A DNA stretch of 64,000 nt from an uncultured Pseudomonadales bacterium. GTDB taxonomy: Bacteria > Patescibacteriota > Microgenomatia > UBA1400 > PJMF01. The notes below the pieces were generated by a model. The model was not told the origin of the DNA. It did not search any database and saw only the letters and a list, made by a program, of their open reading frames with translations. The stretch lies in the NCBI GenBank assembly GCA_964406075.1, contig CAYOQI010000002.1, positions 96,565 to 160,564 on the forward strand, given 5' to 3'. Positions within the stretch are counted from its first letter, which is position 1, and every line of letters begins with the position of its first letter. Positions 2 through 23,823 of this stretch are shown here, piece after piece. The position numbers and the translations under genes were made by a program.

Positions 2-460
2 GAAGCTGGAACAGATAAAACTACGCAAATTCAATCTCAACTTGAACACCTAACTCCAGATGTACGAGTACTTCAGTTTACAAAAGTGTTGTCGCCAGAT
101 ATTTTCCTGAGTACTTCCTTTGCTACTTCTCGTCCTGCGGATGAAACGGGTGAACATCATCACGTTCATGAAGACTATCAAATGTATTGGTATGAGTCAG
201 AACAACCACATGATGTAAATAAAGTGATTCAAGTCATTCGAAACACTCCCAAAGAAATTGTTCGAATTAAAGGAGTAGTTTTTTCTTCAGATAGTACCAA
301 CTCAAAAGTACTCATCCAACGTGTTGGATCACGCACCACAACAGACTCAAGTGAGTGGGGAAGTGATGAGAAAAAACAAACAACTATTCTCTTCATCGGA
401 AAATCATTTGATGAGGATGAGCTAAAAAAACAGCTTGATACTACAAAAAGTACGATTTAA
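2..460 (+). CDS. CobW/G3E-family GTPase metallochaperone, C-terminal portion (5' end outside window)
   Basis: Frame is open from base 2. His-rich linker GEHHHVHEDY is followed by a CobW_C-like segment (EIVRIKGVV...TTILFIGKSFDEDELKKQL). The listed ORF 86..460 is only the internal-Met part. Confidence 0.6.
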   Translation, partial: EAGTDKTTQIQSQLEHLTPDVRVLQFTKVLSPDIFLSTSFATSRPADETGEHHHVHEDYQMYWYESEQPHDVNKVIQVIRNTPKEIVRIKGVVFSSDSTNSKVLIQRVGSRTTTDSSEWGSDEKKQTTILFIGKSFDEDELKKQLDTTKSTI

Positions 461-472
461 TTTCTAAAAATT

Positions 473-1801
473 TTAGTACCTGTATTGATCCGCTTTAAAT
501 GGTCCTTTATTTGGAACACCTAAATATTCAGATTGATCCTTCGAGAGTTTCGTTAATTTTGCTCCCACGTGTTCTAAATGCAAAGCTGCTACTTTTTCAT
601 CAAGATGTTTTGGTAAAACATAGACACCGACAATATACGGTTTGGTATACAGTTCAATTTGAGCAAGAACTTGATTGGTAAAAGAATTTGACATCACGAA
701 TGATGGATGACCCATCGCACATCCTAAATTAACTAATCGCCCTTCAGCTAAGAGAATAATTCGATGTTTGTCAGGCCTGCCCGCCGTGGCGGGGAAAGTA
801 TAGACATCGACCTGTGGTTTTAAGGTTTTCTTTTTAATTCCTTTAAACGCATTCAACTCAGCAACTTGGATCTCCACATCAAAATGGCCAATGTTACAAA
901 CAATCGCCGTGTCTTTCATTTTTTCCATGTGTTCAATGCGAATGACATCTTTGCATCCGGTCGCGGTCACAAAAATATCGACTTCTTTGATCACGTCTTC
1001 AATTCGTTTGACTTCATATCCTTCCATCGCGGCTTGCAACGCACAAATCGGATCGACTTCTGAAACAATCACTCGCGCTCCGTTATTTCGTAAAGACTGA
1101 GCACTTCCCTTACCGACATCTCCAAACCCAGCCACAAAAGCTACTTTTCCAGCCAACATCACATCAGTCGCTCGCCGAATGGCATCAACTAATGACTCAC
1201 GACAGCCGTATAAATTGTCAAACTTTGATTTCGTCACAGAATCGTTCACATTGATGGCTGGAATTTTTAATTTCCCGGTTTTCATCATTTTGTGAAGGTG
1301 ATGCACTCCCGTAGTGGTTTCTTCTGATACGCCTTTGATTTGATCAAGCAATTCAGGATGTTTTTCATGCACCAAACTTGTCAGATCTCCCCCATCATCT
1401 AATAACATATTTGGACCGATCATTTCACCCTTTTTATCAGTGAAAAGTAGCGTTTGTTCCGTACACCACCAGTACTCCTCTTCTGTTTCGCCTTTCCACG
1501 CAAAGACTGGAATTCCTGCTTTCGCAATTGCAGCAGCCGCATGATCTTGAGTCGAAAAAATATTGCAGGAGGCCCATCTGACTTCAGCTCCCAGCTGAAC
1601 CAAAGTTTCAATCAACACTGCGGTTTGAATGGTCATGTGAAGTGAACCGGCGATTCGAGCACCTTTGAGCGGTTTGGATGAAGCGTATTCTTTCCGAATG
1701 GCCATCAGTCCTGGCATCTCATTTTCTGCTAGTTCAATTTCTTGGCGTCCCCATTCTGCCAGTGAAATATCTTTTACCTTGTATGAGTCTGTTTTTTTCA
1801 T
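473..1801 (-). CDS. ahcY: S-adenosyl-L-homocysteine hydrolase
   Basis: 442 aa with full-length AhcY hallmarks: [29 protein letters not shown]-binding [45 protein letters not shown]. Confidence 0.97.
773..790 (-). other. 18-nt GC-rich palindromic in-frame micro-insertion within ahcY (encodes ATAGRP)
   Basis: Sense strand GCCACGGCGGGCAGGCCT is 15/18 G+C inside an AT-rich gene. With the flanking CCC it forms CCCGCC-AC-GGCGGG. These are six extra codons relative to the canonical PQVD-x9-IILLAEGRL spacing. Confidence 0.6.
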
Positions 1802-1808
1802 ATGTTCC

Positions 1809-2756
1809 TTATAGTGAGATATCTTGATGATACTGCTTTTTATAACGATCAGTAATTTGAGATTTTGTTAAAACATGTTCTTGAGTGCCGTGAATTTCTA
1901 CCACAAAAGCAGCTAAGGTTGAACCAAGCTGGGCTGAAGTTTTCAAATCCCAGCCTCGGGTATAACCATATAGAAATCCTGCTCGATAGGCGTCACCAGC
2001 TCCAGTCGGATCAACCACCTTTTTCACTTTGACGGCTTGAATCGATTGTTTTTCCCACTTATTTTGTTTTGAATAAATTTCTGAACCTCTTTCACCTAAA
2101 GTAATGATACAGACTTCGACTGACTGGATAATTTCTTCCGGTGTTAACTCTGTTCGTTCGGACAACATACCCATTTCATAATCATTGAGGATTAAAACTT
2201 CGGCAGCATGAATGCCTTTTCGTAAAGTTTCTTTTGATAACGCAATGACTTGCTGTCCTATATCAAAGTACATTCTTTTTTTTAATTCTAAACACTCATC
2301 AATTTGGACAGCCATTTGTTCTGGATCATGAGCCGAGAGAACAATCAGCACATCTTCGTCAGCAAATTTTTGAATTGTTAAAGACTTCGCATCACCCATT
2401 GCACCAGGATAAAATCCGCCAACTTGGCAATTATTACTATCGGTAATTACGCTAAAAGTAGCCGTTGGTAGGGAAGAGTAATGCACATGATCAATGTTCA
2501 CACCAAGTTTTTCTAACTCTTTCATATACACTCGTTGATCATCACCAATTGAAGAATATAACAGGGGAGTGTCGCCCAGCAAAGCTAGGGAATAAGCAAT
2601 ATTGCCCGCAATCCCGCCTCGACTTCGGATCAATTTTTGAATTAAAACAGAAATAGAAAGTACTCGAAGTTTATCTGGCTGGATCATGTCCGCGAATAAC
2701 CCATCGAAGTTCATGATCTGATCTACCGCCAGTGAGCCAATCAGCACAATTTGCAT
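1809..2756 (-). CDS. adoK: PfkB-family adenosine kinase (mycobacterial AdoK type)
   Basis: 315 aa. The N-terminus [49 protein letters not shown] is colinear with M. tuberculosis AdoK as I recall it. Also has FYPGAMG and the PfkB signature [16 protein letters not shown]. It lies 7 nt upstream of ahcY on the same strand. Confidence 0.75.
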
Positions 2757-2815: not shown

Positions 2816-4468
2816 ATGACTCAGTCCTCCGCTCTAGCAATTTTGAAAACCGGTGCCAATGTTTTTTTAACTGGGAAACCCGGCAGTGGCAAAACCCATA
2901 CGGTGAACCTCTACCGCGATTATCTGCGTGAACATGGAATCGAAACTGCTGTTACGGCTTCGACTGGGATCGCTGCTACACATTTAGGTGGTCAAACGAT
3001 TCATTCATGGAGTGGGATAGGTATTCGAAAAGATCTCACTTCATATGATTTCAATTTGATGCGAGAAAAAAAATATCTACTTCCCCGACTTCAATCAACC
3101 AAAGTGTTAATTATCGATGAGATTTCCATGCTGGATGCTCAGACGCTGGATCAAGTCGATCAAACCCTCCAAGCATTGCGAGAAAGTGATCGACCATTTG
3201 GTGGACTTCAAATTGTATTTGTGGGAGATTTTTTCCAGTTACCACCAGTAGAGAAATTATCGAAATTTGCGTTCGAATCTTCAGCTTGGCAAGAAGCTCA
3301 ACCCGTCATTTGTTATTTATCAGAACAACACCGCCAGGAAGATACACATTTTTTGAGTGTGTTAGATTCGATTCGTACTGGAGAAAATATTTCTCAAGTT
3401 GAGAATGCGTTATCGATGAGAATTATTGAGTCTGATATCGAGACCACTGTCACCCGGCTCTATTCTCACAATGTCGATGTGGATCGAGTGAATGCTGAAT
3501 GGTTGGAACAACTGTCCGGCGAGGAATCTATATTTCAAATGAAATCAAAAGGACAGAAAAATCAGATTGCTTCGCTGATCAAAGGCTGTCTTTCTCCTGA
3601 AACATTGATATTAAAAAAAGGTGCTCGAGTCATGTTTACCAAAAACAATATTGATGAAGGCTTTGTAAATGGCACGATTGGAGAAGTCGTCAGCTTCACA
3701 AAAGAAAACTTTCCTTTGGTGCGAACAACTGAAGGAAGCATGATCGAAGTTCAACCAATGGAGTGGGTGATTGAGGAAAATGAAAAAAAAATAGCCAGTA
3801 TTTCTCAACTTCCCTTACGTTTGGCTTGGGCGATCACAGTGCACAAAAGCCAAGGGATGACGATTGATTCGGCACTGATTGATCTGTCTCGAACTTTTGA
3901 ATATGGCCAAGGATATGTTGCCATTTCACGAGTCCGGACATTATCAGGACTGTATTTAATTGGCTTTAATGAAATGGCATTAAAGGTCCATCCAAAAATT
4001 CAAGAAGTTGATACTCAGTTTAAAACGAAATCTCAAAACGCAGAAAAAAGACTCAGTCAGTATTCTGACAGCGACATCGCCACCAAGCACAAAAATTTCA
4101 TCATTGCTTCGGAAGGAAGTCTCAAAAAAATTGAAGTGAAAAAACCAAAACCAAAAACTGAATACGATGGTAGTACCTATGAAGCCACTCTCGCATTGTT
4201 TAAACAAGGAAAGGTACTCACTGAGATTGCCATAACCCGCGATTTAACCTTAGGAACTATCTTAGGACATATTGAAAAATTGCACCAAAATGCTCAAATT
4301 GAAAAAAAAGAACTCCAATCACATGTTCCTGATTATCTCCGTAAAGACTTGCCTAAAATTCGCAAAGTATTTAAAAAACTCGGTTCCGAAAAACTTTCAC
4401 CAGTATTTGAGTCATTCAAAGGAAAGTATTCGTACGAAGAATTAAAATTGGCAAGAATTATGATGTGA
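2816..4468 (+). CDS. PIF1/RecD-like SF1B DNA helicase with C-terminal HTH-like tail
   Basis: Walker A GKPGSGKTH, Walker B LIIDEISM, VGDFFQLPPV, AITVHKSQGMT. Start moved from GTG 2732 to ATG 2816 (MTQSSALAILK), which has a TAAAAT box 7 nt upstream. Confidence 0.8.
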   Translation: MTQSSALAILKTGANVFLTGKPGSGKTHTVNLYRDYLREHGIETAVTASTGIAATHLGGQTIHSWSGIGIRKDLTSYDFNLMREKKYLLPRLQSTKVLIIDEISMLDAQTLDQVDQTLQALRESDRPFGGLQIVFVGDFFQLPPVEKLSKFAFESSAWQEAQPVICYLSEQHRQEDTHFLSVLDSIRTGENISQVENALSMRIIESDIETTVTRLYSHNVDVDRVNAEWLEQLSGEESIFQMKSKGQKNQIASLIKGCLSPETLILKKGARVMFTKNNIDEGFVNGTIGEVVSFTKENFPLVRTTEGSMIEVQPMEWVIEENEKKIASISQLPLRLAWAITVHKSQGMTIDSALIDLSRTFEYGQGYVAISRVRTLSGLYLIGFNEMALKVHPKIQEVDTQFKTKSQNAEKRLSQYSDSDIATKHKNFIIASEGSLKKIEVKKPKPKTEYDGSTYEATLALFKQGKVLTEIAITRDLTLGTILGHIEKLHQNAQIEKKELQSHVPDYLRKDLPKIRKVFKKLGSEKLSPVFESFKGKYSYEELKLARIMM

Positions 4469-9981: not shown

Positions 9982-10049
9982 ATTCTGACTGAAATTTTTT
10001 TCTTAACTAACCAGTCAACTGCCAACTATCCAACCAGTTAACTTACATG

Positions 10050-10133
10050 TGCACCTACCAAGAACTTGCCTACCGGCAGGCAGGTCGAACTTGGATCAAC
10101 GGTTCCATCCACCCGCTTGTTTGCCATTCCCAA
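10050..10133 (-). pseudogene. Decayed tRNA-Arg copy / att-like 3'-half remnant with a 20-nt insertion in the T-loop
   Basis: The 3' half GGAACCGTTGATCCAAGTTCGA[20 nt]TTCTTGGTAGGTGCA matches the adjacent tRNA at 36/37 positions. There is no complementary 5' acceptor strand and no foldable D or anticodon arm. Confidence 0.7.
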
Positions 10134-10150
10134 GTCCTGACGAAGAAGAG

Positions 10151-10222
10151 TGCACCCACCAAGAATCGAACTTGGATCAACGGTTCCGCAAACCGCTATT
10201 CTATCCATTAAACTATGGGTGC
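10151..10222 (-). tRNA. tRNA-Arg (anticodon GCG)
   Basis: Manual fold, 72 nt: GCACCCA/TGGGTGC acceptor, anticodon arm GCGGT-TTGCGGA-ACCGT, T-arm CCAAG-TTCGATT-CTTGG. No encoded CCA. Confidence 0.85.
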
Positions 10223-22731: not shown

Positions 22732-23823
22732 ATGCAACTTTCAAATAACGTATTAAAGATCCAACGCTTACCCAAACATCAAAGTCAACATTATGAGATC
22801 AAAGATCCCAGTATCCTGCAACGAAAAGATGGCTCTTACCTTATGTATGCTTCTGTTGGAAATTCTAACAATCAATCTTGGTTAGTTGGACGTTTTTCCG
22901 CGCAAAAGATAGATGGCATGTGGGAAGAACTTGAACCGGTAGAATTTTCTGAAATTTCCGGACCACAACTCTGTGCACCAGCCGTCTCCTATGAGGTCCA
23001 AGCTGATGAGAGTGAGCTTTGGACTATGTATATTCAAACTGCCTGTTTTGAAGAAAATGGAGTAATTGCTATTGCCACCTCAACAGATGGTCACCATTTC
23101 GTCGGTCAACCGCATCCCGTCATTACGAGAGAAAGTATTGGCGACGGCCCGGCTCCAGTGATCGGTGTATATGATGTCGGTATTTCTGAAGTTCATGCTT
23201 CAGATCAGGATTTAATGTGTATGGTCTATTCTGGTTATCGCCGAATTGGCTGTGGCGACATCTATGTTTCGTACAAAAACAAACATGACAAAAATGCAGA
23301 GTGGACAAAAGGTGAATGTTTATTAGCTCAAGAAAATTTGCCATTTCATAACCGACCTGATTTTGATCATTTCGAATGGGGATTAGAAGGTGCCAAAATT
23401 ATTCAACTTGCCGATGACTGTTTTGTGATGATTGGTGTTTGTTTCTTACCCAAACCGAATGAATTTTTAGGCTCGCGACAACGTGTCTTTTTAGCGGCTG
23501 CTCGTTCGATGAAAGGGCCGTACACACCACTTGGATTGCCCTTCTTACCTCAGACATCTACAACAACGACTGAAGTAAAAATTATTGTCGGTGAAAATGG
23601 TCATCCTGACACTTTGATTCATGAAGAGACACTGTGGGTCATGTACCAAGAACGAGCCGGTAACGGTCAGCCTTGGCATTTACGTATTGCGAGTTTTGAT
23701 TTACCTAAAATGGAAAAATTTGTTCGCAATAAATTAGGTGAACAAGAAATGGTAACGAATCAACAAATTGCGGAACAGCTTGATGTCGATCAGTATCACT
23801 TTCAGTATGCTTCATTAGCATAA
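22732..23823 (+). CDS. Beta-propeller glycoside-hydrolase-like protein (GH43/32/68 clan-like)
   Basis: 363 aa. N-terminus YEIKDPSILQRKDGSYLMYASVG is typical of 5-bladed propeller GH. Family assignment is uncertain. Confidence 0.4.
   Translation: MQLSNNVLKIQRLPKHQSQHYEIKDPSILQRKDGSYLMYASVGNSNNQSWLVGRFSAQKIDGMWEELEPVEFSEISGPQLCAPAVSYEVQADESELWTMYIQTACFEENGVIAIATSTDGHHFVGQPHPVITRESIGDGPAPVIGVYDVGISEVHASDQDLMCMVYSGYRRIGCGDIYVSYKNKHDKNAEWTKGECLLAQENLPFHNRPDFDHFEWGLEGAKIIQLADDCFVMIGVCFLPKPNEFLGSRQRVFLAAARSMKGPYTPLGLPFLPQTSTTTTEVKIIVGENGHPDTLIHEETLWVMYQERAGNGQPWHLRIASFDLPKMEKFVRNKLGEQEMVTNQQIAEQLDVDQYHFQYASLA

Follow-up and report, generated by a model that had tools for sequence, protein, structure and literature searches.

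The window analysed here, a stretch of 64,000 nucleotides from a genome of the Patescibacteriota (positions 96,565 to 160,564 of contig CAYOQI010000002.1), contains near its beginning a gene for adenosylhomocysteinase (AhcY), encoded on the minus strand at 473..1801 with 442 residues, and within this gene an 18-nt GC-rich hairpin, CCTGCCCGCCGTGGCGGG (776..793, plus strand), which is very probably one copy of a dispersed insertion element, here named E18. The host gene was assigned from matches in the Protein Data Bank (PDB) to E = 1e-199 and from the names of its homologues. Its product is a full-length S-adenosylhomocysteine hydrolase (SAHH) with an intact NAD domain, judging from the alignment of rat SAHH (PDB 1b3r) to residues 6-442 (E = 1e-199) and from PF05221 and PF00670, the Pfam families on record for a database protein identical to this AhcY. 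The alignment with the rat enzyme leaves a six-residue gap exactly at the insert. The sense strand from 796 to 770 reads TTC CCC GCC ACG GCG GGC AGG CCT GAC, translated as FPATAGRPD, and on the coding (minus) strand E18 is CCCGCCACGGCGGGCAGG, encoding PATAGR. On the plus strand, the 5′ end of E18 is CCTG, the hairpin CCCGCC-GT-GGCGGG comes next, and AGG (773..775), the target-side trinucleotide, stands directly 5′ of the element; read on the coding strand, this AGG is CCT, a native Pro codon. The stem comprises 5-6 bp and folds as DNA with 5 bp at -5.3 kcal/mol, and none of the six frames of E18 contains a stop codon.

An earlier, sequence-only reading of this DNA had singled out ATAGRP as six extra residues of AhcY, the high G+C of their codons in an AT-rich gene, and a hairpin CCCGCC-AC-GGCGGG. 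The first is borne out by the gap in 1b3r and by the canonical loop length of most homologues (see below), the second by base counts (15/18 G+C in the inserted codons, with a window mean of 37%), and the third by the DNA stem described above. The extra codons had also been taken as the unit of insertion; the length of 18 nt holds at AhcY, but the unit is CCTGCCCGCCGTGGCGGG at 776..793 beside the native AGG/CCT rather than simply the extra codons.

The segment 772..796 holds the highest-GC 18-mer of the 64 kb (16/18), and only one other place reaches 15/18. In the AlphaFold2 model, the insert occupies residues 338-343 between two strands (331-336 and 346-351, pLDDT ~88), and E18 is thus predicted to lengthen a beta-hairpin turn. 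Such turns are typical places for indels, and the insert could in principle be an ordinary lineage-specific loop, that is, a vertically inherited in-frame indel whose GC content and palindrome are by-products of its peptide and whose similarity to a second insert in the window, within a tRNA remnant, is due to chance. Synonymous-codon resampling of FPATAGRPD gives this explanation part of what it needs, as the hairpin alone is unremarkable for the peptide (P-A-x-A-G fixes four of the six stem pairs, and the probability of a stem of at least 6 pairs is 0.16), whereas the GC content remains unusual for the same peptide (P = 0.0013).

The AhcY orthologues bear on the same explanation. Among the 120 closest homologues, named Patescibacteria, Pacebacteria or Woesebacteria and 80-87% identical, the segment that separates PQVD from IILL has the canonical length of nine residues in 101/120, and the loop is longer by 5, 6 or 12 residues in the other 19, with diverged peptides and codons at the same site, as an ordinary loop would have it. 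The peptides found among relatives include ATAGRP, PSAGRP, PTKDRP, AKKGQP, KTKERP and QKGKSG, and in the DNA of eight relatives the codons differ from those of the window, for example CCT GCC ACT GCA GGC AGG CCT for the identical peptide, CCT CCC TCT GCC GGT AGG CCA, or CCA CCA ACC AAA GAC AGA CCA. The relative with the identical peptide (L001) shows three synonymous differences, another point in favour of an ordinary loop, and across relatives a gradient of decay with 0, 3, 7 and 10 differences out of 21 positions can be followed. Fourfold-degenerate sites between the window gene and that of L001 are saturated (66% different), and the window E18 equals the consensus at every position, suggesting that this copy is younger than the split from L001 or under constraint; the star-like tree gives no firm statement on this point. 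In that neighbour-joining tree of the 120 proteins, carriers are scattered and one insertion is not separated from many, and a column-association test indicated that carriers are only partly clustered. A scan of genome collections with the AhcY protein returned mostly distant phyla, and among the matches listed the two Patescibacteria loci were both empty. The idea that the six residues might be strain-specific is contradicted by these alignments, since decayed versions occupy this site in the AhcY genes of relatives. Orthologues with the same loop, which the sequence-only reading had named as a sign of an ancestral loop, do exist by the letter in the form of diverged loops, but these loops turned out to be old E18 copies.

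The second insert of the window lies in a tRNA pseudogene. An intact tRNA-Arg(GCG) gene is located at 10150..10222 on the minus strand (called by ARAGORN; Rfam tRNA, 64.9 bits), with a T-loop, GTTCGA|TTCTTGG, that serves as the empty reference. At 10049..10128, also on the minus strand and 21 nt downstream, alignment to the intact gene identified a tandem, 5′-truncated and degenerate copy, in which the anticodon loop is degenerate and the T-loop is split by a 20-nt palindrome; the remnant is not called by ARAGORN, and Rfam has no match in the region besides the intact tRNA. The flanks of the palindrome match the intact tRNA in 22/22 and 15/16 nt. The element, termed type B, occupies 10065..10084, reads CTTGCCTACCGGCAGGCAGG on the plus strand, is two mismatches away from the perfect palindrome CCTGCCTGCCGGCAGGCAGG, and forms an 8-bp stem of -8.0 kcal/mol as DNA. 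The 11-mer CCTGCCCGCCG of E18 (776..786, plus strand) matches CCTGCCTGCCG of type B (10074..10084, minus strand) at 10/11 positions, with P ~0.009 in a composition-matched shuffle.

The pattern CCTGCCTGCCGGCAGGCAGG was found in 57 copies in 48 IMG/VR viral contigs spanning a G+C of 0.33-0.70, and a composition-matched control palindrome gave 0 copies in IMG/VR contigs. Some of the type B copies on viral contigs fall within tRNA genes, where they occupy the D-loop, the T-arm or the variable region. Contigs with the palindrome in tRNA genes include L245 (~515), L220 (~339), L234 (2284..2303) and L205 (~8616), and the positions in putative phage tRNA genes include one just before TTCGAATC. On L234, ARAGORN calls a 92-nt tRNA-Met in which type B forms a long extra arm in the variable region. 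Moreover, on the metagenome contig L097 about 30 nt separate a type B copy from E18, and another type B is present as well; both types begin with CCTGCCYGCCG followed by the partial or full inverted complement. By sequence, the tRNA insert is a sister type of E18. Because 20 is not a multiple of 3, type B is restricted to spacers and RNA genes; in keeping with this, the coding copies seen do not include it. The sequence-only reading was thus right about the 20-nt insert in the tRNA-Arg remnant, about the 10/11 core match and about membership of this insert in the same family, for which the viral copies, the shared CCTGCCYGCCG and the co-occurrence on L097 speak. It erred in calling the two inserts length-matched, as they represent sister families of 18 and 20 nt, and landing in frame applies to the 18-nt type but not to the 20-nt type.

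The dispersed nature of E18 became evident from metagenome contigs. An exact-match scan with the 21-mer CCCGCCACGGCGGGCAGGCCT, comprising E18 and the adjoining CCT, recovered the sequence in 95 contigs, about 14 of which have a GC content of 0.34-0.47; in these, the 21-mer is bordered on either side by AT-rich sequence, in differing contexts. According to our own base-composition estimate, chance would yield ~0.001 matches in DNA of 35-40% GC and ~5 where GC is high. Within the AT-rich contigs, the sequence is in frame and read through in at least ten other conserved gene families, in all three phases. The resulting peptide is RPARRGG in MiaA, TrxB, TrmD and a GT2 glycosyltransferase, GLPAVAG in Pth, AtpC, an Fe/Mn superoxide dismutase, ribosomal protein L9 and PurE, and ACPPWR in a short-chain dehydrogenase/reductase (SDR). 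Solved homologues of Pth, TrmD, MiaA and TrxB show a six-residue gap at E18, the same net length as in AhcY. Relative to the coding strand, the orientation is CCTG...GGG in ten genes and the reverse in AhcY only (two-sided binomial P ~0.01, own calculation). The Pth and TrmD carriers are Patescibacteria by the names of their relatives. Contig L152 carries at least five variant E18 copies in 14.5 kb together with the type IX secretion genes PorP/SprF and CHU_C, which are known only from Bacteroidota, and L106 has a tandem pair plus one more copy. Along with a contig that stops at E18 (L112) and two contigs with just one flank in common (L117 and L144), these cases suggest that a genome can hold several copies. 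With exact copies in so many unrelated genes and genomes, and also in spacers, E18 is a dispersed repeat, present in Patescibacteria, in a Bacteroidota contig and in soil contigs rich in repetitive extragenic palindromic (REP) sequences, and not a loop without copies elsewhere. The family of miniature GC-rich insertions landing in frame that the sequence-only reading had envisaged is borne out by these copies, and the further copies of its core motif that were sought beyond the window exist, for E18 in metagenome contigs and for type B in viral contigs.

Several observations on individual contigs may be added. At 3271..3385 and 5219..5429 of L152, variant hairpins (GCCTGCCCGCCGCGGCGGGTA, and a composite with CCTACCTACCGTAGGCAGG) together with direct repeats of ~40 nt flank a two-gene block (301 and 257 aa). 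L144 (E18 at 122..142) and L117 (334..354) have the atpC sequence in common to one side of the element and differ on the other, where L117 continues atpC and L144 runs into a sequence resembling ribosomal protein S17 (judged from translation only); this pair could be either an assembly chimera or the result of recombination at the repeat. In L124, L127 and L097, the exact 21-mer apparently sits at the same spacer, with similar immediate flanks and 150-nt flanks that are 60-82% identical, which suggests that E18 has been conserved or renewed there relative to its surroundings, in a sample biased by exact-match retrieval.

Since the same 21-mer turns up in numerous unrelated assemblies and has a length that assemblers often use for k-mers, and since L144 appears chimeric at E18 and contig L112 ends there, one might consider a sequencing or assembly artefact, i.e. 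a technical sequence or a k-mer graph error inside contigs. The insertions, however, are always exactly in frame and at loops of essential proteins, orthologues from independent assemblies (NCBI, JGI, ENA, Logan) contain diverged copies that change in the manner of coding DNA, and contig breaks and chimeras are expected from a genuine repeat, so that an artefact is extremely improbable. An adaptor or linker was likewise rejected, as E18 is not known to match any adaptor and its insertions are in frame at loops.

Comparisons of filled and empty alleles in Pth and AhcY, together with the restoration of REP hairpins upon removal, define the 18-nt unit. A Pth carrier reads AGG GTA GG[C CTG CCC GCC GTG GCG GG]G GAT, and two relatives are empty, with AGG GTA GGG GAG/GAT; another carrier has three substitutions, and a further one contains a 21-nt variant. 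The empty target is GTAGG^GGAT, and it follows from this comparison that the inserted unit is the 18 nt of CCTGCCCGCCGTGGCGGG, with a junction ambiguous by GG and without duplication. Empty sites in AhcY have the form TTC CCN GAY (e.g. TTC CCT GAT in L090), which is CAGG^GAA on the opposite strand and places E18 directly 3′ of the native AGG. In soil contigs with a GC content of 0.52-0.60, the 21-mer is embedded in REP-like hairpins, and deletion of the 18-mer restores perfect REP stems, CTCAGGTC-TGAA-GACCTGAG-CTAC, the insertion being again 3′ of CAGG, on the other strand. The junction with the target forms the palindrome CAGG|CCTG. By these alignments, E18 inserts at the DNA level directly 3′ of AGG, without clear duplication of the target. 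The filled and empty pairs differ in this respect from what a miniature inverted-repeat transposable element would leave, showing only the GG ambiguity, no duplication and a single hairpin.

Filled and empty sites recur in Pth and TrmD. A monophyletic group of the three Pth carriers (P0121, P0124 and P0128) appeared in 0/300 bootstraps, and the clade of P0123, P0124 and P0125, which mixes empty and filled alleles, received 100% support with one carrier nested with two empty alleles; the carriers are thus not monophyletic, which implies that one nucleotide position received E18 more than once or that copies were lost precisely. In TrmD of Parcubacteria and Paceibacteria (P0241-P0360), an extension at the E18 site is present in 43/120 homologues, with many inserts reading (K/R)PARRGG, PTRRGG or PARGRG. 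A Pth of Shapirobacteria (P0152) has the peptide EPARRDG at a neighbouring position. Once old, E18 copies change like any coding sequence, which accounts for the divergent loops at these sites in AhcY, Pth and TrmD, and the TrmD and Pth peptides suggest that many old element-derived loops may exist in Patescibacteria proteins. Permissive sites are pristine, decayed or cleanly empty in close relatives, and E18 has accordingly been either inserted repeatedly or removed precisely. Since decayed copies evolve as codons, E18 is evidently translated, and with 18 nt and no stop in six frames, an insertion in a surface loop only adds six residues of the Gly/Pro/Ala/Arg type and is tolerated.

Against this background, the ordinary AhcY loop, to which the orthologues at first pointed, is in our view refuted as a complete explanation by the exact copies and by the filled and empty Pth alleles, which are separated by the very same 18 nt. 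It leaves unexplained the 21/21 identity with copies in more than ten unrelated genes of AT-rich contigs, where only ~0.001 matches would be expected by chance, and it is further opposed by the joint presence of both insert types on L097, by the GC content beyond what the peptide requires, and by a window copy that equals the consensus at all wobble positions despite synonymous saturation against L001. Vertical inheritance of a mere loop is therefore very unlikely. Other candidates were set aside as well: an intrinsic terminator, for want of a T-run; a CRISPR repeat, given single copies; a bulge-helix-bulge (BHB) or group I intron, given that E18 is translated and decays as codons; and a fragment of a universal RNA, none of which E18 is known to match.

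Among known systems, REPs and the Rickettsia palindromic elements (RPEs) are the closest kinds. REPs measure 20-40 bp, are at times inside open reading frames (ORFs) and read through, and are mobilised by the Y1 transposases known as REP-associated tyrosine transposases, or RAYTs (PMC3733652); intragenic copies as well as RPE-4 and RPE-6 have been described, and a GTAG or CGTC tag is the defining feature of REP families (Di Nocera et al. 2013, PMC3733652). Like REPs, E18 and type B are short, G+C-rich hairpins whose 5′ foot carries a conserved tetranucleotide, are dispersed in many copies and can coexist as several types in a genome, lack the signature of terminal inverted repeats plus duplication, and share the occasional location inside ORFs. 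Both form the stem-loop palindrome of a REP, with lengths of 18 and 20 nt that lie just below and at the lower limit of the stated range. Unlike REPs, they carry the tag CCTG, and no conserved GTAG or CGTC occurs at either end of the aligned copies (type B variants contain GGTAGG, internally only). E18 also differs in that most of its AT-rich copies are intragenic, that an identical sequence occurs in different phyla, and that no RAYT was found among the window ORFs and the neighbours of copies on L097, L106, L124 and L127; in soil contigs it is itself inserted into GTAG-type REPs.

Like RPEs, E18 lies in frame in conserved genes, is translated, is tolerated at the surface and is patchy among orthologues (PMC3733652), and this in-frame insertion with patchy orthologue presence is found here. 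RPE-1 spans ~100-150 bp and adds 30-50 residues, whereas the 18 nt of E18 add six, and the hosts here are Patescibacteria, Bacteroidota and soil bacteria, whereas the known hosts of RPEs are Rickettsia, so that E18 is set apart from RPEs by length and hosts. RPEs were reportedly treated by Ogata et al. in 2000. E18 thus works like an intragenic REP or RPE but without the REP tags. A resemblance might also be drawn to the IS200/IS605 insertion sequences, whose hairpin recognition, insertion by a short specific sequence, lack of target duplication and precise excision E18 would share by analogy; these elements have two different ends and at least 100 nt, whereas E18 is a single hairpin and its link to a transposase comes from one contig. 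The ends of this family and its miniature derivatives, palindrome-associated transposable elements (PATEs), are said to have been treated by Barabas et al. in 2008. GC clusters of yeast mitochondria (PMC4478555) are likewise GC-rich palindromic mobile sequences in AT-rich genomes, at times in coding regions. These clusters and the byp elements are, however, organellar and at least 30-50 nt long, and ribosomes bypass byp elements, in contrast to E18, which is evidently translated. The byp elements are reportedly the subject of Lang et al. in 2014. A literature search of limited scope found no paper with the sequences or peptides of E18 or type B, or with REP-like repeats in Patescibacteria, which is absence of evidence only.

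With regard to mobilisation, E18 might be moved in trans by an enzyme recognising single-stranded DNA hairpins, similar to the REP/RAYT pair or to the Y1 (HUH) transposases of IS200/IS605, in which case the 5′ CCTG beside the hairpin would take the role of the REP tetranucleotide tag. This Y1/HUH mechanism is proposed because of the hairpin with a fixed 5′ tetranucleotide, the insertion by a short sequence without duplication and the apparently precise empty sites, and it is put forward as a possibility that we consider rather doubtful. The only direct lead to an enzyme comes from L112 (1..585), where the ORF of an IS200-like Y1 transposase (PF01797) ends 95 nt from AGG plus E18 and the contig stops right after E18, a hint only. 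The tblastn search for enzymes, a weak test with IS200 and RAYT sequences, found two loci. A different route to a real and recurrent E18 would do without a transposase and rely on templated insertion or repair: a short hairpin of cellular or phage origin might, for example, be reverse-transcribed or copied at breaks by AGG/GG, or alleles might undergo short-patch recombination, so that one sequence would be written in time after time and not cut and pasted. Such write-in would agree with the missing target-site duplication, with the lack of a transposase in the 64 kb and beside most copies, with the palindromic junctions CAGG|CCTG and with the abundance of type B in phage contigs, and it would make the cross-phylum identity easier to understand through a shared template or a horizontally moving agent. 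No source of a template was found, however, E18 is not enriched in viral contigs, the clean empty sites in sister lineages fit precise excision of the Y1 type equally well, and one E18 copy does stand beside an IS200-like transposase; templated write-in is a live alternative, though an improbable one.

A number of points weigh against E18 as a mobile element of this kind. For AhcY alone, there may have been a single ancient insertion followed by decay. Pfam revealed no transposase when applied to the window ORFs with a minimum length of 90 aa (68 in number) and to the element neighbours on L097, L106, L124 and L127. The transposase on L112 is a single instance and has no relative in IMG/VR, and the second Y1_Tnp (L141/L129, with RAYT in L141) lies at a distance of 2 kb, with other REPs on its flanks. 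The window holds one E18 and one type B, with no further or decayed copies at up to 5-6 mismatches in DNA or up to 2 mismatches in six-frame peptide searches; these are few copies for 64 kb, and the copy number in this genome may be low. In viral contigs E18 is not enriched, as its 13 matches, all at a GC of 0.56-0.71 and without preference for CCT, amount to chance. The preference for AGG is partly built into the 21-mer query and comes from three empty-site reconstructions only, because the query itself included CCT. Finally, REP families are usually species-specific, which makes a 21/21 match between phyla difficult to account for if the family is REP-like.

As to the surroundings within the window, a PfkB-family kinase gene (1809..2756, minus strand) lies directly upstream of ahcY. 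The pair also occurs in the loci of seven relatives (L002-L005 and L086-L088), and L001, L089 and L090 are without an annotated PfkB gene; the kinase gene and ahcY probably form an operon. Among the short islands of the window, the one that ranks second in GC content, at 23139..23158 (GGCGACGGCCCGGCTCCAGTG), is unlike E18 and type B, and the ORF that contains it (22732..23823) has no Pfam match.

Our results raise the possibility, which we hold only tentatively, that E18 and its 20-nt sister are the smallest mobile DNA elements so far known from bacteria, a cross-phylum family found in Patescibacteria, Bacteroidota, soil bacteria and phage contigs and built from CCTGCCYGCCG plus its partial inverted complement, which would repeatedly hit the same permissive sites, act as a general source of six-residue loops in housekeeping proteins of the candidate phyla radiation (CPR) and of extra arms and pseudogenes of tRNAs, and spread as an undescribed class of Y1/HUH substrates or by templated write-in. 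Some lineage-specific inserts in conserved Patescibacteria proteins would then stem from a defined 18-nt element and not from replication slippage, and the decay of E18 could be traced from pristine to unrecognisable copies, so that E18 and type B offer a molecular clock and markers for very small genomes that are poor in other mobile DNA. The element also explains contig breaks and chimeras at a 21-mer, and the presence of an identical sequence of 18-21 nt across phyla raises the question of its transfer. Beyond proteins, type B interrupts tRNA genes, and these elements may thereby create or destroy tRNA function.

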